In this document: piece by piece, positions 7,178 through 27,952 of the stretch | Layout: each line of letters starts with the position of its first letter | How positions within the stretch are numbered: the first letter of the stretch is position 1 | Source of the DNA: Hydrotalea sp. | Lineage (GTDB): Bacteria > Bacteroidota > Bacteroidia > Chitinophagales > Chitinophagaceae | Assembly (NCBI GenBank): GCA_027364735.1 | Contig: DAHXOT010000032.1 | Span: forward strand, 17,495 to 81,494 | Direction: 5' to 3' | Length of the DNA stretch: 64,000 nucleotides | Made by a program: the position numbers and the translations under genes | The notes under the pieces: model-generated | The model's input: the letters and a program-made list of their open reading frames with translations, nothing else | What the model was told of the DNA's origin: nothing | The model's database searches: none

Positions 7178-8355
7178 ACATTGGCTTCAGCAATAAAAGA
7201 TTGGTAATACACTTGCACTTGCTGAGCATATTTTTCTGCAAATTGCAACAGCTTATTTTTCCATTCTAAATGTTTTTCTGCATACGCAATTAATTCATCT
7301 GCTATCACCGATCCATTTCTGCCGGTACTTCTTAAATGTGCAGATGCTGCCGCTTCGGCCATAGTTTGTAAAATATTTTCTAACTTTTTTAATTTACCCT
7401 TACATAAATTCAAATCCATTTTATCGGCACTGGGCTGCAATTGTTTCATAACAAAATATTTATTGCTAAACTGAAGAGGTTGTAATAAAGCAGGAGAAAT
7501 ATGTTGCATAATTTCTTGCACAAATACAATTCTTTCTGCTTCGTTATTAAATATGGGTTGTGATTGCACATATTGCCGTAAACAAGCAACTTTTGATTCT
7601 TTCATATCTAATAATACAAAAGATTTTTCTTGTATTTTTTTTGCCAAAATAATATATCTATCTACTCCAATACTTCCCGTACCTGCTATTCTTATGGCAG
7701 CATCTGTAAAAACATATTTGCCATTGTGGTATTGATTGCTCCAATTATTAAAAAATATTTTTAGTGCATTTTTAGTACGCTTAGTAAGTGCTATTGTTTT
7801 TTGATCATCAATTAAAAGCATTCTACCATTTTTTTTGTTAATTGTATGCGACTTGATTAAATCTGAATTAGACCTTTCACTCACTTGCACTATTAACTGC
7901 TTTAAAATACCACTCGCAGTATTTCTTTCAATAACCAATGATTTTCCTTTTTGCAAAACTTTTATATACTCTGCCAAGAATGAAGCTGCTATTTTTTTAG
8001 CTTTTAATTTAGATAAATGCATATCCTTCGCAGCTAAAAAAATACTGGTAAGCATACGCGATATTTCCCAACTAACAGGTGCTAAAACGGCTTCATCAAA
8101 ATCATTCAAATCAAAATATTCTAATTTATTATCTCCTTTATACGTACCAAAGTTTTCAATATGCAAATCGCCGCAAATCCATGATGTAGTTTCATCTTCC
8201 CAATTTTGCCAAGATTTAAAATCTTCATAAAACAAATGACAAGTTCCTCTAAAAAACCTAAATGCCGATTGCTTCATAGCCGCATATTTAAAAACCAATA
8301 ATTGTTGGTTTCTATCCTTATTATACTTTTGTATGCGATGCCAAACTGTACTCAT
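7174..8355 (-). CDS. DUF2252 family protein
   Basis: 393 aa with FFRGT and CGDLHIENFG motifs typical of DUF2252. Confidence 0.6.
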   Translation of the reverse strand: MSTVWHRIQKYNKDRNQQLLVFKYAAMKQSAFRFFRGTCHLFYEDFKSWQNWEDETTSWICGDLHIENFGTYKGDNKLEYFDLNDFDEAVLAPVSWEISRMLTSIFLAAKDMHLSKLKAKKIAASFLAEYIKVLQKGKSLVIERNTASGILKQLIVQVSERSNSDLIKSHTINKKNGRMLLIDDQKTIALTKRTKNALKIFFNNWSNQYHNGKYVFTDAAIRIAGTGSIGVDRYIILAKKIQEKSFVLLDMKESKVACLRQYVQSQPIFNNEAERIVFVQEIMQHISPALLQPLQFSNKYFVMKQLQPSADKMDLNLCKGKLKKLENILQTMAEAAASAHLRSTGRNGSVIADELIAYAEKHLEWKNKLLQFAEKYAQQVQVYYQSFIAEANV

Positions 8356-8369
8356 AAATAAATTATTAA

Positions 8370-9158
8370 ATGCCTTATTTTATTGATCAATGTAATAAAA
8401 AAATATGGATTAATGATAATCCAAAACGTATAATTTCATTAGTTCCTTCACAAACAGAACTATTATTCGATTTAGGATTGAATGAAGAAGTAGTAGGTAT
8501 TACAAAGTTTTGTATTCATCCAAAAGGTTGGTTGGGTAAAAAAGCTCAAATTGGTGGAACCAAAAATATTAATATCGAAAAAATAAAATCTTTACAACCC
8601 GATTTAGTAATTGCCAACAAAGAAGAAAATGTAAAAGAACAAATTGAAATGATTGAAAAATTTTGTTCTGTTTGGACAAGCGATGTAAGTAATTTAACTA
8701 CCGCTATTGAAATGATTCAATCAATTGGTATAATTACACAGCAACAGGCTAAAGCTGATAAAATAATAGCTACACTGCAAGATGATTTTTCAAAAACTAA
8801 ACCCAATTTTCCCTTATTAAATGCATGTTATTTAATTTGGAAAGACCCATACATTACAGTTGGTGGAGATACTTTTATTAATGATATGATGCATTGGTGC
8901 AGATTAAAAAATATTTTTGAAAATGATACTCGCTATCCACAAATATTACTAAAAGAAATAACTAACTTAAACTGTGAAATTTTACTTTTAAGCTCAGAGC
9001 CATACCCTTTCAAAAAACATCATATTACTTTACTACAAGAAGAACTTCCTACCGTAAAAATAGTTTTAGTGGATGGAGAAATGTTTAGTTGGTATGGCAG
9101 CAGATTATTAAAAACACCAACCTATTTTAAACAATTAAATAACCTATTGCATGCTTGA
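8370..9158 (+). CDS. TroA/BtuF-like (cobalamin/iron-chelate type) binding protein
   Basis: PKRIISLVPSQTELLFDLGL and PDLVIANKEEN motifs of class III helical-backbone binding proteins. Ends with a TGA stop. Confidence 0.6.
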   Translation: MPYFIDQCNKKIWINDNPKRIISLVPSQTELLFDLGLNEEVVGITKFCIHPKGWLGKKAQIGGTKNINIEKIKSLQPDLVIANKEENVKEQIEMIEKFCSVWTSDVSNLTTAIEMIQSIGIITQQQAKADKIIATLQDDFSKTKPNFPLLNACYLIWKDPYITVGGDTFINDMMHWCRLKNIFENDTRYPQILLKEITNLNCEILLLSSEPYPFKKHHITLLQEELPTVKIVLVDGEMFSWYGSRLLKTPTYFKQLNNLLHA

Positions 9159-12364: not shown

Positions 12365-13303
12365 ATGAAAAAAGATCAAGAAAAAGAATTAGATATAGAT
12401 CAAGATTTAACGGGAAGCGAAACCGATCATACATTAATTAACCAGCAGGAAGTAAAACCTAAATGGTATAAACGCATAAGAAAAGGAATATTAACCAAAA
12501 CATCTGAAAAAAAAGAAACTCCGGAAGGCTTGTGGAGTAAATGCCCCGAATGTAACTATATCTGTACTTCTACCGAGTTGAAAGAAAACGTTTATGTTTG
12601 TCCTAAATGTAATTACCATCATCGTATCGGCAGCAGCGAATATTTTGATTTGTTATTCGATAATAAAGAATATGGAGAATTATTCGATAATATTATTAGT
12701 AAAGATTTTTTAAAGTTTACCGACCTAAAGCCTTATCAACAAAGGTTAGATGAAATTTATGCAAAATCGCATTTAAAAGATTCTATGCGAGTAGCCGTAG
12801 GAAAAATTAATGGCGAGGAAATGGTAATTGCTTGTATGGATTTTGAATTTATTGGCGGCTCATTAGGCAGTGTAATGGGCGAAAAATTTAGTAGAGCAGT
12901 TGATTTTTGTATTGAATATAAATTACCTTATTTAGTAATTAGTAAAAGTGGCGGTGCCAGAATGATGGAAAGCGCTTTTAGTTTAATGCAATTAGCAAAA
13001 ACAAGTGGCAAACTTTCGCAATTAAGCGATGCTAAATTGCCCTATATTTCTTTACTAACAGATCCAACTTTTGGCGGTATTTCTGCAAGCTTTGGCATGT
13101 TAGGTGATTTAAATATAGCCGAACCGGGAGCACTGATTGGTTTTGCAGGACCTAGAGTTATAAAAGAAACAATTAAAAAAGATTTACCGGAAGGTTTTCA
13201 ACGAAGCGAATTTTTATTAGAACATGGTTTCTTAGATTTTATAGTAGATAGAAAAGAATTGAAAAGTAAAATGAGCCAATTGATAGTTCTATTTAAAAAT
13301 TAA
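12365..13303 (+). CDS. accD: Acetyl-CoA carboxylase carboxyltransferase beta subunit
   Basis: Zn-ribbon CPECNYI...CPKCNYH, then the carboxyltransferase domain ([17 protein letters not shown]). Confidence 0.9.
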
Positions 13304-13379
13304 ATCCCATTCGCACTGTTTTTATAGTATTAAAATCTCACAAAAATTCGGCCGTCAGGGTGATTTAGATTTAGTGGCT

Positions 13380-13820
13380 ATGGCAAAAGAAATGAACAAC
13401 AGACAGGCATATTTTAACTATCATATAGAAGATACCTATGTGGCCGGTATTGTTTTATTAGGTACCGAAGTAAAAAGTATTAGAGAAGGTAAATTAAGCT
13501 TTAATGATGCATTTTGCATGTTTGACAAAGGTGAACTTTGGGTAAGAGGTTTATATATTGCCGAATATAAATTAGGCACCAGCAATAATCATATTGCAGT
13601 TTACGACAGAAAGTTGTTACTTACCAAAAGAGAATTAAAACGATTAGCTGTTAAATTAAAAGATAAAGGCTATACTATTATTCCTTTACGAGTATTTATT
13701 AATGATAAAAATTTAGTAAAAATAGAAATTGGCATTGGAAGAGGAAAAAAATTACATGATAAACGCGATACTATAAAACAACGCGATACTGAACGAGAAA
13801 TTAAACGATATCTTGCTTAA
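13380..13820 (+). CDS. smpB: SsrA-binding protein SmpB
   Basis: AGIVLLGTEVKSIR and the basic C-terminal tail. The start is ambiguous between GTG 13374 and ATG 13380. Confidence 0.9.
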   Translation: MAKEMNNRQAYFNYHIEDTYVAGIVLLGTEVKSIREGKLSFNDAFCMFDKGELWVRGLYIAEYKLGTSNNHIAVYDRKLLLTKRELKRLAVKLKDKGYTIIPLRVFINDKNLVKIEIGIGRGKKLHDKRDTIKQRDTEREIKRYLA

Positions 13821-19515: not shown

Positions 19516-19600
19516 AAAAAGAAAAGCCCCCGTTAAAGTCGAGGGCAACTTAATGTTTTCACAACGGAATAATCCTTATTGTGATTTGCTTTCAATCGTA
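19516..19600 (-). ncRNA. tracrRNA: Predicted tracrRNA (anti-repeat, nexus-like hairpin, intrinsic terminator)
   Basis: The minus strand reads AUUGAAAGCAAAUCACAAU. This is 18 nt of perfect complementarity plus one G-U to nt 1-19 of the repeat in its GTTGTGATTTGC... orientation. It is followed by AAGGAUUAUUCCGUU, then the hairpin GCCCUCG-ACUUUAA-CGGGGGC (19526-19546) and UUUUCUUUUUU. Confidence 0.7.
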
Positions 19601-19633
19601 AAAATAATTATTAAATCGATAAAATGTAATAAT

Positions 19634-22600
19634 ATGAAAAAAATTTTAGGACTTGACCTAGGAACTAATAGTATTGGATGGGCTCTGTTAAATACCAATG
19701 AGAATGGAAAACCTTGCAGTATTGCAGGAATGGGCAGCCGGATTATTCCGATGACGCAAGATGTTTTAGATACTTTTAGTGGCGGCAAACCCTTGGAGAC
19801 ACAAACCTCAGCTCGCACAGGATATCGCGGAGTACGTCGGATTCGTGAACGGCATTTGCTACGTCGTGAACGTTTACATCGCGTGTTAAATGTTTTAGGT
19901 TTCCTACCTGAACATTATGCCAACCATATTGATTTCAATAAGCATTACGGAAAATTTGTTGATGAATCTGAACCAAAACTTACATACAACAACAGACAAT
20001 TTATTTTTGCAGAGTCATTTGAGGAAATGCTGAATGACTTCAAACAATTACAACCTCAATTATTCTATACAAAGTCCAATGGAAAAGAAACCAAAATCCC
20101 ATACGATTGGACAATTTACTATTTGCGTAAGAAAGCGTTGAGCCATAAAATTGCCAAAGAAGAATTGGCATGGATAATTCTGAATTTCAATCAAAAACGT
20201 GGCTATTACCAATTGCGTGGAGAAGAGGAAGAAAGAACTGATGTTAATGAGTTCTGTGCTTTGCTGAAAATAATATCTGTTGAAAAAGGAGAGAAAGACA
20301 AAAAGAACGATAGGAAAACTTGGTACAAAATTTCTTTTGAGAATGGATGGGAATATTCTGCCACATTTACTTCTGAACCCAAATGGCTAAATACTGAGAA
20401 AGAATTTCTAATAACGGAAGAATTCGAAGAAGATGGTAGCATTAAAATAGTAAAGGATAAGAAATCAGATACAAATGGTAAAGAAAAACGAAGAATCACA
20501 CCTTTGCCATCCTTTGATGAAATTAACCTGATGAGTAAAAAAGAACAGGATAAAATTTATAAAAAAATAAAAGCAAGAACAGAAATTACAATAAGAAACA
20601 GTAATAAGACCGTCGGCAGCTATATTTACGAAAGTTTATTACAAACGCCTGCACAAAAAATACGGGGAAAATTAGTCCGTACCATAGAACGTAAATTTTA
20701 CAAAGAAGAATTAGTTGCTATTCTGAAAAAACAAATCGAAATTCAGCCGGAACTGTTTACTGAGGAGCTGTACAATGATTGTGTGCGTGAACTTTACCGA
20801 AGCAACGAAACTCAACAGCTTGTTTTGAGCAAACGTGATTTTGTCCATTTGCTTGTTGAAGACATTATTTTCTACCAACGACCGCTTCGTAGCCAAAAGT
20901 CTTCAATTGGGAATTGCACCATGGAATACCGGATATATAAAGACAAAGACAGCAATCAGATAAAGGAATACCTCAAGGCTATACCCAAATCACATCCACT
21001 TTATCAGGAATTCCGGGTTTGGCAGTGGCTATATAATCTAAAAATATATCGAAAAGAAGATGACAAAGATGTAACCGCTGAATTTTTAAAAGATGCTAAT
21101 GCCTTAGTAGCCCTTTTCGAATTTCTGATGTTGCAAAAAGAAATTGGACACAAGGATGTTCTTAAGCATTTGATTTCACCGACACTAAAAGAGAAATACC
21201 CAAATGCAAAAGCAACGGCATTCAATAAAGAAGTTGATAAGGAAATTGCAAAATACCGCTGGAACTATGTTTTTGACGATTCAAAAGAGAAGGAAGAAGA
21301 AAAATCGAAGAAATACCCCTGCAACACCACCGGTTACGAAATCAGGCGGAGGCTTGAAAAAGTAGAAAACATTCAGACAGACTTTCTCACTCCTCAGGTT
21401 GAGCAACATCTATGGCACATTATTTATTCTGTTACCGACAAATACGAGTACAAATCGGCTCTTGGTAAGTTTGCCAGAAGATACTCTATTGATGAAAATT
21501 CGTTCGTTGCGAACTTTGAAAAATTCCATCCATTTCCAAGCGAGTACGGAGCATATTCCGAAAAGGCAATCAAAAAGTTTTTACCCTTAATGAGAATTGG
21601 TAAATATTGGAATTGGGATGCTATTGATAGTAAAACACAAGAAAGAATTGGGAAAATAATTTCAGGCGAATATGATGATAACATTAAAACCAGAGTCCGA
21701 GAAAAAGCAATAAGTCTAACCGACAATAATCATTTTCAGGGTTTACCCATTTGGCTTGCAAGCTATATTATATACGATCGCCATGCGGAAGCCGATATTG
21801 CCGGAAAATGGAATTTTATTGAAGACTTAGAACAATACCTTAAAGACTTTAAACAACACTCTTTACGAAACCCCATCGTAGAGCAGATTGTGACTGAAAC
21901 ATTGCGAGTGGTACGTGATATCTGGAAGCAATACGGACAAGGTGCTAAAGACTTTTTTAGCGAAATCCATGTTGAGTTGGGACGCGAAATGAAAAACACA
22001 GCTGACGACCGCAAATGGATGACCGAACAAATGGGCAACAACGAAGCTACAAATCTACGAATTAAGTCTTTACTAATGGAGTTGAAGGAAAATACCGACG
22101 GAAAATTACCGGTTGAAAATGTTCGTCCTTACTCACCAATGCAACAAGATGCGTTGAGAATATATGAAGATGGAGTGCTAAACTCAAAGGTTAATTTACC
22201 AGAAGATATTGTCAAAATTAGCAAAACCGCCCAGCCCAGTAAAGCCGAATTGCAGCGCTATAAATTGTGGCTGGAACAAAAATATCGTTCACCATATACA
22301 GGAGAAGTCATTCCATTGGGCCGCCTATTTTCGGAAGATTATCAAATAGAACACGTTATCCCGAAATCCCGATATTTCGACGACAGTTTCAACAACAAAG
22401 TGATTTGCGAGTCAGCCGTAAATCAACTAAAAGATAAGCAGCTTGGATTGGAGTTTATAAAGAATTATCACGGCGAGAAAGTGGAATGTGGTATGTGGAA
22501 AGTAGTGGAGATTTTTACAGAGGAAGCCTATCAGACTTTTGTAAAAGAAAACTATACAAAAAATAAAGCCAAGCGGCAGAATTTGCTATTGGAAGATATT

Positions 22601-24157
22601 CCCGAAAAAATGATTGCCCGCCAAATGAACGACACCCGATATATCAGCAAGTTTATTTCGTCTCTGTTATCAAATATCGTTCGTGCTGATAAAGAGGACG
22701 ATGGTATAAACTCAAAAAATCTGATTCCGGGAAATGGGAAAATAACAACAGCATTGAAAAAGGATTGGGGAATGGACGCTGTTTGGAACGATTTGATACT
22801 GCCTCGCTTTGAACGAATGAATCAATTGACCAACTCAGATGCCTTTACCTATTGGAACGAACAATATCAAAAATTCATGCCGGTTGATTATTCTCCAGCC
22901 GATTGGAAAAGAATTGAAAAGAAAAGAATTGACCACCGTCACCACGCTATGGATGCTTTGGTAATTGCGTGTATGACAAGAGACCATGTTAATCTGCTCA
23001 ACAATCAATCAGCAAAATCGGAAACTTCAAGATACGATCTACAAAACAAATTGAGGAATAAGAGTAAAGAATCATGGTTTGATAAAAGAGCGAATAAACA
23101 AATAGAAAGGGATGTATTTAAAGAATTCAAAAAGCCTTGGGACAACTTCACACTGGATGCAAAAAACGCTTTGGAAACTATTGTTGTCAGCTTTAAACAA
23201 AACCTTCGCGTAATCAATAAAGCAACCAATAATTACCAGAAATGGGTTGAAAAGAACGGAGTTAAAGTAAAGGGAATCGTAAAACAGGAAGGAACAAACT
23301 GGGCAATACGGAAACCGATGCACAAAGAAACGGTTTCGGGCAAGGTGGTCTTAAGCCGGATAAAAGTTCCAAAAGGGAAAATACTTACAGCTACTCGCAA
23401 AAGTATTGATACGACCTTCGATTTAAAGACTATAGACTCTATTACAGATACAGGCATTCAAAAAATCCTTAGGAATTTTCTGGCATACAAAGGCAATAAC
23501 CCAGAGCTTGCCTTTTCACCAGAAGGATTGGAAGAAATGAATGCCAACATAAAACAATACAATGATGGTAAATCTCACAAACCGATTAGGAAGGTTAGGA
23601 TATTTGAATTGGGAAGTAAATTCTCTTTGGGTGAAAGAGGAAATAAGAAATATAAGTATGTGGAAGCGGCAAAGGGAACAAATTTGTTTTTTGCAATATA
23701 CATCAATGAAGCTGGTATTCGGAGTTTTGAAACTATCCCTTTAAACATAGCTATTGAACAGCTAAAACAAGGTAAAAGCCCAGTAACGGAGATAAAATTT
23801 GATGAAAAGATGAATAAGTTTACTTTACAAACTTACCTTAGTCCAAATGATCTCGTTTATGTTCCGTATCAAGATCAGAGGACTCAAAGCAGTATTACTG
23901 TGATTGATAAGAGCAGAATTTATAAATTTATTGACTCAAGTGACTCTACTGCAAACTTTATTCCTGCCACTTCCGCTTCGACAATTTTCAATCTCAACAA
24001 AAAAGATCAGGAAAAAAAGGGATTGAATTTCGGAATGCAAAATGAATTTGGAATAGGAAGTCCTCAATCAAAAAACCAAAAAGCACTTTCTGGAGAAATG
24101 ATTAAAGATGTTTGTATCAAACTAAAAGTTGATCGATTAGGCAACATCTTATTTTAG
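19634..24157 (+). CDS. cas9: Type II-C CRISPR-associated endonuclease Cas9 (1507 aa)
   Basis: RuvC-I MKKILGLDLGTNSIGWA; Arg-rich bridge helix RTGYRGVRRIRERHLLRRERL; HNH YQIEHVIPKSRYFDDSFNNKVICESAVNQLK; RuvC-III IDHRHHAMDALVIAC. Followed by cas1 and cas2, with no csn2 or cas4. The ATG at 19634 is preferred over 19553, which overlaps the tracrRNA. Confidence 0.95.
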   Translation: MKKILGLDLGTNSIGWALLNTNENGKPCSIAGMGSRIIPMTQDVLDTFSGGKPLETQTSARTGYRGVRRIRERHLLRRERLHRVLNVLGFLPEHYANHIDFNKHYGKFVDESEPKLTYNNRQFIFAESFEEMLNDFKQLQPQLFYTKSNGKETKIPYDWTIYYLRKKALSHKIAKEELAWIILNFNQKRGYYQLRGEEEERTDVNEFCALLKIISVEKGEKDKKNDRKTWYKISFENGWEYSATFTSEPKWLNTEKEFLITEEFEEDGSIKIVKDKKSDTNGKEKRRITPLPSFDEINLMSKKEQDKIYKKIKARTEITIRNSNKTVGSYIYESLLQTPAQKIRGKLVRTIERKFYKEELVAILKKQIEIQPELFTEELYNDCVRELYRSNETQQLVLSKRDFVHLLVEDIIFYQRPLRSQKSSIGNCTMEYRIYKDKDSNQIKEYLKAIPKSHPLYQEFRVWQWLYNLKIYRKEDDKDVTAEFLKDANALVALFEFLMLQKEIGHKDVLKHLISPTLKEKYPNAKATAFNKEVDKEIAKYRWNYVFDDSKEKEEEKSKKYPCNTTGYEIRRRLEKVENIQTDFLTPQVEQHLWHIIYSVTDKYEYKSALGKFARRYSIDENSFVANFEKFHPFPSEYGAYSEKAIKKFLPLMRIGKYWNWDAIDSKTQERIGKIISGEYDDNIKTRVREKAISLTDNNHFQGLPIWLASYIIYDRHAEADIAGKWNFIEDLEQYLKDFKQHSLRNPIVEQIVTETLRVVRDIWKQYGQGAKDFFSEIHVELGREMKNTADDRKWMTEQMGNNEATNLRIKSLLMELKENTDGKLPVENVRPYSPMQQDALRIYEDGVLNSKVNLPEDIVKISKTAQPSKAELQRYKLWLEQKYRSPYTGEVIPLGRLFSEDYQIEHVIPKSRYFDDSFNNKVICESAVNQLKDKQLGLEFIKNYHGEKVECGMWKVVEIFTEEAYQTFVKENYTKNKAKRQNLLLEDIPEKMIARQMNDTRYISKFISSLLSNIVRADKEDDGINSKNLIPGNGKITTALKKDWGMDAVWNDLILPRFERMNQLTNSDAFTYWNEQYQKFMPVDYSPADWKRIEKKRIDHRHHAMDALVIACMTRDHVNLLNNQSAKSETSRYDLQNKLRNKSKESWFDKRANKQIERDVFKEFKKPWDNFTLDAKNALETIVVSFKQNLRVINKATNNYQKWVEKNGVKVKGIVKQEGTNWAIRKPMHKETVSGKVVLSRIKVPKGKILTATRKSIDTTFDLKTIDSITDTGIQKILRNFLAYKGNNPELAFSPEGLEEMNANIKQYNDGKSHKPIRKVRIFELGSKFSLGERGNKKYKYVEAAKGTNLFFAIYINEAGIRSFETIPLNIAIEQLKQGKSPVTEIKFDEKMNKFTLQTYLSPNDLVYVPYQDQRTQSSITVIDKSRIYKFIDSSDSTANFIPATSASTIFNLNKKDQEKKGLNFGMQNEFGIGSPQSKNQKALSGEMIKDVCIKLKVDRLGNILF

Positions 24158-24161
24158 GTAT

Positions 24162-24755
24162 ATGCCACCACTTCTTCCCAATCAATATTATCATATATAC
24201 AACCATGCCAATGGGGATGATAATCTTTTTAGGGAAGAGGAGAATTATCGTTTCTTTTTACAACAATACCATCAACATATAGATGCTATAGCCGATACAG
24301 TTGCATGGTGTTTGATGCCTAATCATTTTCACCTGCTTGTTAAAATAAAAAACGAAGAATCGCTGCTGCAAACTTTTTCAAAGTTTGAAACTTTGGAAAA
24401 GTTGCTGTCGAAGAAATTTTCTAACCTCTTCAGTAGCTATACGCAGGCTTTTAATAAATTATATCAACGCAGGGGTTCGCTTTTTATAAAGAACTTTAAA
24501 AGAAAATAAATCACTTCTTCTCAGTATTTACAAACCCTCGTTTTATACATCCACCTCAATCCTATTAAACATGGTTTTACAAAAAAGATTTCTGAGTGGC
24601 AATGGAGTTCTTACCACTACATTCAGCATCATTTCTATGAGCTTCCATTCATCGTAAAAGGGTTTGAAAATAAAAACACTTTTCTCGAACAACATCTAAT
24701 AAAACTCAATCGTTTTAGTGAATATATCGCATTAGAGGAATCACTCACTCAGTAA
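24162..24755 (+). pseudogene. RAYT-like Y1 (HUH) tyrosine transposase, IS200/IS605 TnpA superfamily, interrupted by an in-frame TAA at 24507-24509
   Basis: YHIYNHANG...; HUH motif MPNHFHLLV; RRGSLF..NFK; then, after the in-frame stop, YIHLNPIKHGF....WQWSSYH (catalytic Tyr region). Same reading frame before and after the stop. Starts 4 nt after the cas9 stop and ends 11 nt before the cas1 ATG. Confidence 0.75.
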
Positions 24756-24766
24756 ATCATATTAGT

Positions 24767-25681
24767 ATGATAAAACGCACTCTTTGCATAGAATCTCCTT
24801 GTCATCTTAAATGCCGCAACGAGCAATTGGTAGTAAGTTATGAGCACATAAAAGGATACGAGAACAGAGAAGAAAAAACAGTAGCTATTGAAGATATTGG
24901 TATGCTTATTTTAGAGCATCAGCAAATAACCCTCTCTCATTATTTGTTAGATAAGTTGGTGGCCAATAATACAGCTGTGATTACTTGCAACGAAACCCAC
25001 CACCCCAGTGGCATGCTACTATCGTTAGAAAGCCATACCCTACAAAGCGAAAGGTTTAGGGCACAGATTGAAGCTACCGAACCATTAAAAAAACAATTAT
25101 GGCAGCAAACGGTAAAAGCAAAAATAACCAATCAGGCATTGGTGTATGAAAGATGGAATATTGCCAATACGTATTTAAAAAACACAGCACAATCGGTAAA
25201 AAGTGGCGATACAGATAATAACGAAGCAAAAGCCGCAGCGTATTATTGGAGTCATCTCTTCCCTCCTGCTTGGCAATTTTTTAGACATAGAGAATGACCA
25301 CCACCTAATAATTTATTAAACTATGGTTATGCCATTATTAGAGCCGCAATGGCAAGAGCCATAGCAGGTGCCGGATTGTTACCTACATTGGGTATATTTC
25401 ATAAAAACCGATATAATGCGTATTGTTTAGCCGATGATATTATGGAGCCTTACAGACCATTTGTTGATGTAATTGTAAGAGGAATTATAGATACAACATC
25501 GGCAGTAGCAACATTAACACAAGATACCAAAATACAACTATTAAAACTGCCTACCGTTGATGTGTTGTTGGATGGAGAAAGCAGTCCGCTAATGATTGCC
25601 ATGCAACGAACTGCCGCATCATTAGCAAAATGTTATACCGGAGAAACAAGAAAAATTTTATATCCAACATTATCATCTTAA
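24767..25681 (+). pseudogene. cas1: CRISPR-associated endonuclease Cas1 (type II) with an in-frame TGA at 25295-25297
   Basis: ORFs 24767-25297 and 25349-25681 share one frame. The continuous translation reads ...[61 protein letters not shown]..., a typical Cas1 core. Total length of 303 sense codons is normal for Cas1. Confidence 0.85.
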
Positions 25682-25700: not shown

Positions 25701-26054
<354 letters not shown>

Positions 26055-26213: not shown

Positions 26214-27952
26214 GTTGTTATCAAAGATCGTAAGAACTTAAATTGAAAGCAAATCACAACAGGGCTCAGCAGGAACTTCAAAAATCTTCAGTTGTTATCA
26301 AAGATCGTAAGAACTTAAATTGAAAGCAAATCACAACGAAGATGCTGCCATACTTCACAGAGTAATGGTTGTTATCAAAGATCGTAAGAACTTAAATTGA
26401 AAGCAAATCACAACAGTTCTTCAGTGGAACTCCATTTTAATTCGTTGTTATCAAAGATCGTAAGAACTTAAATTGAAAGCAAATCACAACTATTTTCAAT
26501 CCATTCAACATTACCTGTTGGTTGTTATCAAAGATCGTAAGAACTTAAATTGAAAGCAAATCACAACAAAATAAATATATGAGTGCTATAAGTCAAAGTT
26601 GTTATCAAAGATCGTAAGAACTTAAATTGAAAGCAAATCACAACATAAATGCTTCTGTTAGCGCAGAGGCATTTGTTGTTATCAAAGATCGTAAGAACTT
26701 AAATTGAAAGCAAATCACAACGCAAAAGCGTGTCATTACAACTGCGGTGTAGTTGTTATCAAAGATCGTAAGAACTTAAATTGAAAGCAAATCACAACGG
26801 TGGCATAATAGATGACCCATCGACATACGTTGTTATCAAAGATCGTAAGAACTTAAATTGAAAGCAAATCACAACATAAATGCTTCTGTTAGCGCAGAGG
26901 CATTTGTTGTTATCAAAGATCGTAAGAACTTAAATTGAAAGCAAATCACAACTAATAATAAAATGGTCTTTTAATAGTTCTAGTTGTTATCAAAGATCGT
27001 AAGAACTTAAATTGAAAGCAAATCACAACATACAGTATTGTGCAGTGTTCAGCAAACAAGTTGTTATCAAAGATCGTAAGAACTTAAATTGAAAGCAAAT
27101 CACAACATTCTGACATCATTTTCATATCCGCTATCAGTTGTTATCAAAGATCGTAAGAACTTAAATTGAAAGCAAATCACAACTTATACAATGTGGTTAA
27201 AGTATATTCATATGTTGTTATCAAAGATCGTAAGAACTTAAATTGAAAGCAAATCACAACAAAATGACTTTCGTATTTAATGTTGCTGGCGTTGTTATCA
27301 AAGATCGTAAGAACTTAAATTGAAAGCAAATCACAACATGCTGAAGAAGTAACAGCACTTTCCTCCTGTTGTTATCAAAGATCGTAAGAACTTAAATTGA
27401 AAGCAAATCACAACATAATAGCTTGTGTCTCTGTTCTTCCTGCAGTTGTTATCAAAGATCGTAAGAACTTAAATTGAAAGCAAATCACAACAATAGTGCA
27501 ACATTTCAAACTTGCTAAAATGTTGTTATCAAAGATCGTAAGAACTTAAATTGAAAGCAAATCACAACAAACGGCCTACGCTCAAATATTCAGTCTCAGT
27601 TGTTATCAAAGATCGTAAGAACTTAAATTGAAAGCAAATCACAACTATTAGATCAAAGCGACCATCCGGCATATGTTGTTATCAAAGATCGTAAGAACTT
27701 AAATTGAAAGCAAATCACAACACTTAAATGGTTTACGTGGTAATATTCAAAGTTGTTATCAAAGATCGTAAGAACTTAAATTGAAAGCAAATCACAACAA
27801 TGCCGAAGAAGTAAGCGCTTTATCATCTGTTGTTATCAAAGATCGTAAGAACTTAAATTGAAAGCAAATCACAACAAATTGATGCAGTAAAAGAAATTCT
27901 TCAATGTTGTTATCAAAGATCGTAAGAACTTAAATTGAAAACGAATCACAAC
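26214..27952 (-). CRISPR. CRISPR array: 23 repeats of 47 nt, 22 spacers (20 of 30 nt, 2 of 29 nt)
   Basis: Repeat on the plus strand is GTTGTTATCAAAGATCGTAAGAACTTAAATTGAAAGCAAATCACAAC. In the crRNA-sense (minus) orientation it is GTTGTGATTTGCTTTCAATTTAAGTTCTTACGATCTTTGATAACAAC. Period is 77 nt, and the 29-nt spacers are at 26415-26443 and 27646-27674. The strand was assigned from tracrRNA anti-repeat complementarity. Confidence 0.97.
27906..27952 (-). repeat. Degenerate terminal CRISPR repeat (2 substitutions)
   Basis: GAAAACGAATCAC replaces the consensus GAAAGCAAATCAC. In crRNA sense, GATTTGC becomes GATTCGT. All 22 other repeats are identical. Confidence 0.95.

Follow-up and report, generated by a model that had tools for sequence, protein, structure and literature searches.

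A RAYT-class Y1/HUH gene recurrent at the cas9/cas1 junction of type II-C CRISPR-Cas loci in Bacteroidota, and its nonsense-inactivated copy in Hydrotalea sp.

Introduction

REP-associated tyrosine transposases (RAYTs; REP, repetitive extragenic palindromic sequence) were first described in 2010. A survey published in 2017 treats their cellular role as an open question, and the idea that RAYTs and REPINs (REP doublets forming hairpins) act in a CRISPR-like way has been put forward (PMC5581495). Here we describe a RAYT-like gene of the Y1/HUH type, referred to as Y1, which lies between cas9 and cas1 of a type II-C CRISPR-Cas locus in Hydrotalea sp. The locus is part of a stretch of 64,000 nt (contig DAHXOT010000032.1 of assembly GCA_027364735.1, positions 17,495 to 81,494; hereafter the window) and was compared with related loci (L codes) and with homologous proteins (P codes).

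The published group to which Y1 is closest is subclass 2.4 of TnpA_Y1 (Quentin et al. 2018, PMC6006769), which is RAYT group 4 of Bertels et al. 2017 (PMC5581495). Its members have ~194 aa, an NH[IFV]H motif and a variable beta3-alphaC insertion, and occur in Cyanobacteria and Bacteroidetes; unique to the subclass is that, besides the REPs which flank the gene, others are inserted in its reading frame, at a position between the HuH and Tyr motifs (PMC6006769). The class-1 transposases (TnpA) of IS200/IS605 insertion sequences (IS) carry the motifs DH[VI]H and Y[IV]ENQ (Quentin et al. 2018, PMC6006769). A link to cas genes is mentioned in neither PMC6006769 nor PMC5581495, the words CRISPR and cas1 being absent from the former, and we found no physical link between a RAYT and CRISPR-Cas reported in the RAYT literature examined.

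Canonical type II-C loci of the Bacteroidetes branch, with repeats of 46-48 nt, comprise cas9, cas1, cas2, a repeat array and a trans-activating CRISPR RNA (tracrRNA), for which the published model gives a position just upstream of cas9 (PMC9067536). In-situ exchange or shuffling of cas9 has been described for Flavobacteriales II-C loci (PMC12669027) and in-situ exchange also for F. psychrophilum (PMC10309648), and such module shuffling in II-C has only just been recognised. The sole characterised accessory protein of these loci, the PIN-domain pro-CRISPR accessory PcrIIC1, is encoded by a small nuclease-fold gene in a minority of Bacteroidota II-C loci with large Cas9, binds the C-terminal helix of Cas9 and boosts interference (PMC12669027, PMC13153721).

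The locus in the window shares cas9, cas1, cas2, an array with 47-nt repeats and a tracrRNA upstream of cas9 with the canonical loci, and in-situ exchange of cas9 is visible in its relatives, too; it differs by the additional RAYT-like gene between cas9 and cas1, and by premature stop codons in both this gene and cas1. Y1 is likewise a small nuclease-fold gene found in a minority of loci, but the PIN fold of PcrIIC1 is unrelated to the HUH fold, and in close relatives Y1 stays with cas1-cas2 when cas9 is swapped instead of tracking cas9. The RAYT family, in-gene REP sequences, in-situ cas9 exchange and II-C accessory genes as a category (PcrIIC1) are already known. The literature examined, including the 2025 classification (PMC12669027), contains no RAYT/Y1 gene as a recurrent member of a cas9-cas1-cas2 operon, though large gene catalogues of II-C loci were not covered. 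A preliminary description of this locus, made from the sequence by itself, knew of no described II-C subtype with this gene order, and as far as we searched we could not find it described either. Zhang et al. (2024, Nature) reportedly provide a catalogue of associated genes in II-C loci that may list Y1, and Shmakov et al. (2018, PNAS) are said to be a further place where it may be listed.

Identity and fold of the Y1 protein

Y1 begins with an ATG at 24162, 4 nt behind the stop codon of cas9 (TAG, 24155-24157), extends over 197 codons on the + strand to a TAA at 24753-24755, and is followed after 11 nt by the ATG of cas1 (24767); these distances, and the motifs NHFHLLV (residues 54-60) and YIHLNP...WQWSSYH (residues 129-152), are as given in the preliminary description. 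In profile searches the protein scored 70.6 bits (E=1.2e-19) against NCBIfam NF047646 (REP_Tyr_transpos; curated cut-off 80 bits) and 18.3 bits against Pfam PF01797 (Y1_Tnp; cut-off 23). NF047646 is matched by 30/30 aligned homologues (best E 8e-22), and together with the sub-threshold scores of the window protein this looks like a divergent RAYT subclass. Homologues were found down to E=1e-105, and the resemblance is far beyond chance; N54, H55 and Y129 are invariant, and H57 nearly so, across 30 of them.

A search of the Protein Data Bank with the family profile matched one solved structure, E. coli TnpA_REP (4ER8), and in the alignment YIHLNPVKHGF of Y1 pairs with YIYINPVKHGW of 4ER8, with Tyr129 corresponding to the catalytic Tyr115. 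An AlphaFold2 model of Y1 (predicted local distance difference test, pLDDT, 92; predicted template-modelling score, pTM, 0.86) had 4ER8 as its top Foldseek match (E=3.1e-8; template-modelling score 0.58/0.67, the value of 0.67 being on the target), followed by the TnpA proteins of IS608, ISDra2 and IS200 (E ~4e-4). Y1 and TnpA_REP have the same fold, and in both an HUH motif is combined with one catalytic Tyr that is embedded in YIxxNP; as in the TnpA_REP class, Y1 is low-copy and chromosomal, with cognate hairpins beside the gene in relatives. The two differ in sequence (identity only ~18%), in an additional C-terminal helical region of Y1 (residues ~150-197), in the hairpins, which in the Y1 family form perfect palindromes of 12-18 bp around 3-nt loops, no GT[AG]G foot being recognisable by eye, and in the location of Y1 within a CRISPR-cas operon.

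The Y1/HUH fold is also shared with TnpA of IS200/IS605 (IS608, ISDra2, IS200), and non-CRISPR members of the Y1 family likewise form 0.7-kb hairpin-bounded units. However, NHFH and YIHLNP are motifs of the class-2 TnpA_Y1 (RAYT) type according to the table in PMC6006769, not of class 1, the window is without left-end or right-end element structures, and the outer hairpins of the Y1 family are identical perfect palindromes with a third copy inside the gene. The preliminary assignment to a RAYT-like Y1/HUH gene is supported (NF047646 and the 4ER8 fold). Y1 is a RAYT-class (TnpA_REP) Y1/HUH gene, closest to subclass 2.4 as judged from shared features rather than from the published subclass profiles. 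These features are the length (197 vs ~194 aa), the NH[IFV]H motif, the occurrence in Bacteroidetes, the variable beta3-alphaC insertion and the in-gene REP; the Tyr motif, with a consensus of YIxNNP in subclass 2.4, is YIHLNP or YTHRNP in the Y1 family.

PADLOC-DB gave no match for the Y1 protein, and a PHROGs scan gave one weak family of unknown function and nothing else. One copy of Y1 is present in the window, and no TnpB/IscB partner was found at the window locus or among the called genes of related loci.

Premature stop codons in Y1 and cas1

The 197-codon reading frame reported for Y1 has the right length, but is not open: a TAA at codon 116, between the HUH motif and the catalytic Tyr, limits the real open reading frame (ORF) to 115 aa (Table 1), and the remnant behind it contains zero Met codons. 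Most of 29 homologues have Glu at the position of codon 116, and the closest lineage (P0003) has Gln; the stop codon most likely arose by a single substitution, from GAA by G-to-T or from CAA by C-to-T. The 115-aa product (P0006) was found exact in two further assemblies. An independent assembly (L012) is 100% identical to the window over 23629-25459, TAA included, and in another strain (L011) the locus is 96% identical and the Y1 DNA 100% identical, again with the TAA; the recurrence in both rules out a sequencing error.

In cas1, a single in-frame TGA replaces Gly177. Both halves of the gene are in the same frame; a frameshift was considered as an alternative reading and was rejected by this frame check. 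Cas1 of L011 is intact (304 aa), with Gly at position 177 (codon GGA inferred, not read), and the TGA of the window looks like a G-to-T change. With this stop codon the adaptation module is predicted to be non-functional in the window strain. The adaptation side seems to be decaying stepwise, Y1 having been lost first and the cas1 stop acquired later. The Y1 of the window is a recently dead, nonsense-inactivated copy; cas9, cas2, the tracrRNA and the array look intact. The pseudogene status of Y1, the broken cas1 and the in-gene REP hairpin (below) are additions to the preliminary description.

Readthrough or recoding of both stop codons, such that full-length proteins are made, would fit the finding of one in-frame stop in each of two adjacent genes with no other visible lesion, and the cas1 TGA replaces a Gly codon, TGA being Gly in genetic code 25. 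We nevertheless consider this scarcely credible, since close relatives have ordinary sense codons at both positions, L011 combines the Y1 TAA with an intact cas1, and each stop is explicable by one substitution. Furthermore, under code 11 the window is densely filled with ordinary coding sequence (its other pairs of ORFs in one frame look like neighbouring, separate genes, and were not checked individually), and the relatives are Bacteroidota (named matches include Hydrotalea and Niabella), for which we know of no report of code 25.

Recurrence of Y1 in related type II-C loci

Intact alleles of Y1 exist in close relatives of the window: the genes for P0001 (Hydrotalea sp. AMD, 83% identity) and P0002 (80%) also lie between cas9 and cas1, and each encodes all 197 aa. 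P0003 (92% identity) lies in the same genomic neighbourhood as the window copy and has a frameshifted C-terminus. Among the close Y1 lineages dN/dS is 0.12-0.15 at dS 0.47-0.94; Y1 has thus been under purifying selection for long, without flanking element ends.

A pattern scan of species-representative genomes yielded 596 relatives of Y1, the best 80 loci of which were examined. Of these, 19/80 adjoin type II(-C) cas genes, 16/80 being located between cas9 and cas1, and the other 61/80 are unlinked. The CRISPR-linked copies belong to several Bacteroidota orders (genera Pelobium, Ginsengibacter, Fluviicola, Paenimyroides, Owenweeksia, Saccharicrinis, Draconibacterium, Paludibacter, Belliella, Negadavirga and Fulvivirga). 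For the reverse test, 68 Cas1-centred metagenomic II-C loci with enough upstream sequence were used: Y1 is present in 15/68, directly upstream of cas1 in 12, and absent from 53/68 (~78%). The strand of Y1 is the cas strand in 38/38 linked loci, and in ~33/38 linked copies the frame is intact and both the HUH and the Tyr motif are present (YTHRNP in one clade). The gaps between Y1 and its neighbours are often 3-75 nt, the smallest being 3-5 nt, with a 4-nt overlap with cas1 in L062. On the + strand between cas9 and cas2 of the window no terminator-like site was found; a sigma-70 promoter scan of the window is uninformative for Bacteroidota promoters. In the scans made, Y1 turned up nearly exclusively in Bacteroidota, and in a minority of II-C loci. 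One distant relative was found in viral contigs and nine weak matches in plasmids, and this near absence indicates that the family is not phage- or plasmid-borne. In L041 (Fulvivirga), a full Y1 gene (8001-8618) is located upstream of cas9, and a Y1 fragment (~13300-13618) between cas9 and cas1.

Databases label the Y1 homologues as transposases, the non-CRISPR members of the family form units with a hairpin at each end, two or more paralogous copies of which occur in one metagenome-assembled genome (MAG), and IS elements do land in II-C loci, e.g. IS982 and IS256 in F. psychrophilum (PMC10309648) and IS110 in L143, all of which would suit an ordinary, recent IS200-like insertion unrelated to the CRISPR locus. 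Such an origin is very unlikely for Y1, because flanking ends are missing in the window (spacers of 4 nt and 11 nt), only one copy is present in 64 kb, the same position is held across lineages at dS 0.5-0.9 with dN/dS ~0.13, and the family is nearly absent from plasmids and viral contigs; the arrangement is kept across several Bacteroidota orders, and this synteny largely refutes a recent insertion. The earlier view of Y1 as an operon member rather than a fresh IS is supported by its recurrence at the cas9/cas1 junction with intact alleles, by the common strand and by purifying selection.

REP-type hairpins

The REP-type hairpin inside Y1 of the window (Table 1) maps to the loop after the HUH strand (residues 55-62), and the earlier statement that there is no room for REP hairpins is correct for the two spacers, and incorrect for the gene itself. 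A hairpin of at least 10 bp is present at the same protein position in 32/38 CRISPR-linked homologues (median stem 15 bp) and in 16/61 other Y1 homologues. The stem sequences vary between lineages yet stay complementary, 13/15 pairs having changed on both sides; the set used for this pair count was preselected for hairpins, so that its 99% pairing is circular and only the stem diversity is informative. The in-gene hairpin is an already known trait of RAYT subclass 2.4. No further copies of the window hairpin were found within the 64-kb window, and its comparison with the CRISPR repeat and anti-repeat gave only chance matches of 6-9 nt.

Outside the gene, perfect hairpins of at least 12 bp were found at cas junctions in 13/36 Y1-bearing loci, most of them copies of the in-gene type. 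These are located 50-60 nt upstream and 20-60 nt downstream of Y1, 16-45 nt past cas1 (L023, L025, L031, L161, L174) and past cas2 (L162, L047, L040). Cognate hairpins flank the gene in L023, L025, L031, L161, L174, L176 and L112, and in the non-CRISPR units L036, L056 and L067; the window and its closest relatives have the internal hairpin only, and none in the 4-nt and 11-nt spacers. In 57 loci without a cas1-adjacent Y1, only terminator-like hairpins past cas2 and one hairpin within cas1 (L142) were found, none of them of the Y1 type by inspection. Hairpins of the Y1 type at cas junctions occur only where Y1 is present, and hence come with the gene, as expected of a RAYT-REP pair.

The non-CRISPR Y1 units of ~0.7 kb consist of a hairpin, ~40 nt, the gene with its internal hairpin, and a second hairpin (L036 2316-3087; L056; L067). 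In the two paralogues found in one MAG (L056 7385-8086 and L067 76-834), the outer hairpins mark the exact limits of DNA homology. Within a unit, the left, the internal and the right hairpin have one and the same 15-bp stem, which differs between the paralogous units (AACTTCCCGAAAGTT vs AACTTTCCGAAAGTT); this suggests that the protein and its three hairpins evolve in concert.

Two further arrangements were observed among the CRISPR-linked loci. In L040, hairpins of two types are present (8189, 8613 and 9926), with GACCTGCCAGGTTTT in the gene, the related AGATCTGGCAGGTTTT after cas2, and TTTTCCAAAGTT between Y1 and cas1. In L112 (~1080-2150), a tandem repetitive stretch of ~1.1 kb with the hairpin motif, inferred from repetitive ORF translations, lies between Y1 and cas1.

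Exchange of cas9, and co-inheritance of Y1 with cas1-cas2 at shallow depth

When the window was compared with L013 at the DNA level, the flank and the first cas9 bases were alignable (91% up to 19683; L013 3677), and the alignment resumed from the Y1 start onward (86% from 24161; breakpoint 24160/24161; L013 8000). Y1 is 90-92% identical between the two loci, and Cas2 99%, vs 22-27% for Cas9, the body of cas9 being not alignable. The unalignable cas9 body between a homologous flank and homologous Y1-cas1-cas2 indicates that cas9 was replaced in situ and Y1-cas1-cas2 were kept.

Over 16 loci, Y1 distances correlate with those of Cas1 and Cas2 (Mantel r=0.55-0.61), and do not correlate with those of Cas9 (r=-0.18). 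Over 32 loci, the correlation of Y1 with Cas1 is weak (Pearson 0.17, Spearman -0.16; Cas1 vs Cas2 0.74); in 15/32 cases the locus nearest by Y1 is also one of the three nearest by Cas1, with ~3 expected by chance. Long-term co-inheritance thus holds only at shallow depth, and its loss at greater depth is consistent with repeated acquisition of Y1 at one slot, or with exchange there. In a neighbour-joining tree of ~100 Y1 sequences (long branches, no support values), several CRISPR-linked clusters are interleaved with unlinked copies.

In the preliminary description, Y1 had been considered as a possible relic of the IS200/IS605 (IscB) ancestry of Cas9, i.e. as the original TnpA beside the descendant nuclease. 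The link is a thematic one only, in that Y1 transposases mobilise IscB/TnpB elements, and the idea is best abandoned as extremely improbable: the motifs and the fold are those of a class-2 RAYT and not of a class-1 TnpA_IS200, in the scans made Y1 turned up almost only in Bacteroidota and is lacking in ~78% of sampled II-C loci, its distances are uncorrelated with those of Cas9 and, at depth, decoupled from those of Cas1, and cas9 has been exchanged beside it.

The breakpoint at the Y1 start and the bracketing hairpins bear on a further reading, in which Y1 cuts and rejoins single-stranded DNA at these hairpins and thereby promotes excision, exchange or shuffling of cas modules, by analogy with IS200/IS605 peel-and-paste transposition or integron attC recombination. 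Identical hairpins bracket cas1 (L023, L025, L031, L161, L174) and cas2 (L162, L047), the non-CRISPR unit is a discrete 0.7-kb segment with three identical hairpins and homology that ends at the outer ones, and in-situ shuffling of cas9 is documented for Flavobacteriales II-C (PMC12669027). In addition, L099 is without Y1 and has a Cas1 85% identical to that of L007, with only 8 nt from the end of the Cas9 match to cas1. Nonetheless, the published account of cas9 shuffling mentions no Y1 gene, so that shuffling is not known to require one, the internal hairpin is the only one in most linked loci (the window and its closest relatives among them), and the breakpoints are accounted for just as well by ordinary homologous recombination between conserved flanks; cassette exchange by Y1 is therefore improbable in our view.

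In the array of L011 (2767-3198), 0/5 cas2-proximal spacers are among the 22 spacers of the window, despite the identical dead Y1 allele in both strains. This suggests that spacers were gained after the inactivation of Y1, on the assumptions that the TAA predates the divergence of the strains and that no array was exchanged by recombination. The absence of Y1 from ~78% of sampled loci, the deep decoupling from Cas1 and this spacer turnover make it unlikely that Y1 is an essential adaptation factor.

A genuine accessory nuclease of the adaptation module, acting with Cas1-Cas2, e.g. by capturing single-stranded DNA or trimming it into prespacers, or by nicking at the long 47-nt repeat, would explain the retention of Y1 immediately upstream of cas1. 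The association is strong and position-specific (19/80 and 15/68 loci, on the cas strand throughout and usually directly upstream of cas1), the gene is under purifying selection without flanking element ends, and the catalytic residues are kept in ~33/38 linked copies. Y1 also stays with cas1-cas2 through the cas9 swap, it has the nearest-neighbour concordance with Cas1 given above, and further class 2 accessory proteins are probably undiscovered, with PcrIIC1 as a precedent in II-C (PMC12669027). We still regard such a role as unlikely, as most sampled II-C loci do without Y1, its deep phylogeny is decoupled from that of Cas1, the spacers of the two strains sharing the dead allele are wholly different, the apparent substrate is its own REP hairpin with no convincing similarity to the repeat, there is no PADLOC model, and 61/80 family loci are not beside cas genes.

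Proposed role of Y1

We favour, as rather probable, the reading that Y1 is a domesticated RAYT-REP passenger or accessory that resides on the adaptation side and acts on its own hairpins. A RAYT-REP pair lineage would be resident at the cas9/cas1 junction of about one fifth of the sampled Bacteroidota II-C loci, where the gene has the orientation of the cas genes, is packed as tightly as a member of the operon, is probably co-transcribed, and has been kept by purifying selection. By homology with E. coli TnpA_REP, the intact protein would bind its cognate hairpin on single-stranded DNA, and would cut and rejoin beside it by means of Tyr129 and a metal held by His55/His57. Its activity would be directed at its own hairpins, and an effect on cas1-cas2 expression or on local rearrangement is speculative. 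It is possible, though rather less than even, that the RAYT-REP pair is a functional, hitherto unrecognised module of Bacteroidota II-C systems, with a hairpin-specific nuclease of single-stranded DNA recruited to the adaptation side, for the supply or trimming of single-stranded DNA for Cas1-Cas2 or for hairpin-driven excision or exchange of cas cassettes; any role of Y1 in CRISPR biology is a hypothesis.

Several observations weigh against a resident RAYT-REP pair as described. Both profile scores are under their curated cut-offs, and the canonical GT[AG]G foot of REP sequences is not evident by eye. Apart from one copy in L023 ~2.1 kb past cas2, all extra hairpins in the related loci (flanks of up to 8 kb) lie either inside the cas operon or not more than ~1.5 kb away from Y1. 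Unrelated genes also occupy the cas9/cas1 junction (MazF, AAA ATPases, DUF6155, HIRAN/PRiA4), and the slot may simply be permissive. The distances over 32 loci are compatible with repeated insertion of Y1 at the same site, and the spacer argument depends on the two assumptions named above.

Features of the CRISPR-Cas locus

The type II-C locus occupies 19.5-28 kb of the window on the + strand (Table 1), and comprises a cas9 with RuvC and HNH domains, cas1, cas2, a tracrRNA and an array; there is no csn2 or cas4. Cas9 has the Pfam domains RuvC_III, HNH_4 and Cas9-BH, and scored 383 bits against TIGR01865 (cas_Csn1).

The putative tracrRNA is located not more than 100 nt upstream of cas9, consistent with the Bacteroidetes II-C model (PMC9067536). 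Its anti-repeat matches repeat positions 29-46 in 18/18 nt, and the strong terminator-like hairpin on the - strand reads GCCCTCGAC..GGGGGC, then TTTTCTTTTT. With the putative tracrRNA on the - strand, the CRISPR RNAs (crRNAs) are probably transcribed from the - strand of the array, opposite to that of the cas genes. A scan of the whole window at Rfam gathering thresholds gave zero matches, the tracrRNA and the repeat being not covered by Rfam. The degenerate terminal repeat of the array is at the cas2-distal end, and the cas2 side is therefore likely the leader side. One 30-nt spacer, ATAAATGCTTCTGTTAGCGCAGAGGCATTT, is present twice in identical form (26645-26674 and 26876-26905), three units apart.

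Table 1. Features of the type II-C CRISPR-Cas locus in the window
Feature	Position	Strand	Description
Putative tracrRNA	19517..19600 (approximate boundaries)	-	anti-repeat 19596-19579, then intrinsic terminator 19546-19526 and T-run
cas9	19631..24157	+	1508 aa from MKKILGLDLGTNSIGWA; large type II-C Cas9, intact
Y1 N-terminal ORF	24162..24509	+	115 codons; HUH motif NHFH at residues 54-57; premature TAA 24507-24509
REP-type hairpin	24371..24403		AACTTTTTCAAAGTT-TGA-AACTTTGGAAAAGTT; 15-bp stem with one T/G mismatch; encodes FSKFETLEK
Y1 C-terminal remnant	24510..24755	+	untranslated, in frame; YIHLNP (Tyr129) and C-terminal helices; stop TAA 24753-24755
cas1 (type II)	24767..25681	+	TIGR03639 (cas1_NMENI) matches both halves; in-frame TGA 25295-25297
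cas2	25716..26054	+	intact, 112 aa; matches to PF09827 and TIGR01573
CRISPR array	26214..27952		23 repeats of 47 nt, 22 spacers of 29-30 nt

Other genes at the cas9/cas1 junction

A gene for a conserved DUF6155 protein (173 aa) is located between cas9 and Y1 in L045 (7400-7921) and L118 (5790-6311), and a 113-aa ORF in L173 (3228-3569) shares the N-terminal part of this protein; besides Y1, the DUF6155 gene may thus be another gene that is recurrently associated with such II-C loci. The junction is occupied by a MazF/PemK toxin gene in L021 (5978-6310), by a HIRAN-domain gene and a PRiA4_ORF3-like gene in L022 (6848-7929), and by an IS110-like transposase in L143 (by reading of the sequence, not scanned). 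In L001 (8606-10201; also in L002-L005; Hydrotalea sp. AMD-like), an AAA_14/DUF4143 ATPase gene lies between Y1 and cas1, and the first ~75 nt of cas1 are duplicated upstream of it, as if the ATPase gene had been inserted into cas1 at its 5' end. L033 has a similar AAA ATPase at the same place.

Implications

For the annotation of genomes, the recurrence of Y1 means that a "transposase" call inside a cas operon is not to be dismissed as an IS insertion. For the CRISPR field, Y1 represents a candidate accessory gene and a gene-order variant for type II-C. The window itself is a decayed example, yet offers a natural knockout comparison. The occurrence of a RAYT subclass with its own hairpins inside a cas operon makes RAYT function testable by ordinary genetics and biochemistry in cultured strains, for which Paenimyroides aquimaris, Belliella calami, Saccharicrinis sp. 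FJH62 and Hydrotalea sp. AMD are candidates. If the RAYT-REP pair is indeed a functional module of II-C loci, this would be the first concrete cellular role for a RAYT.

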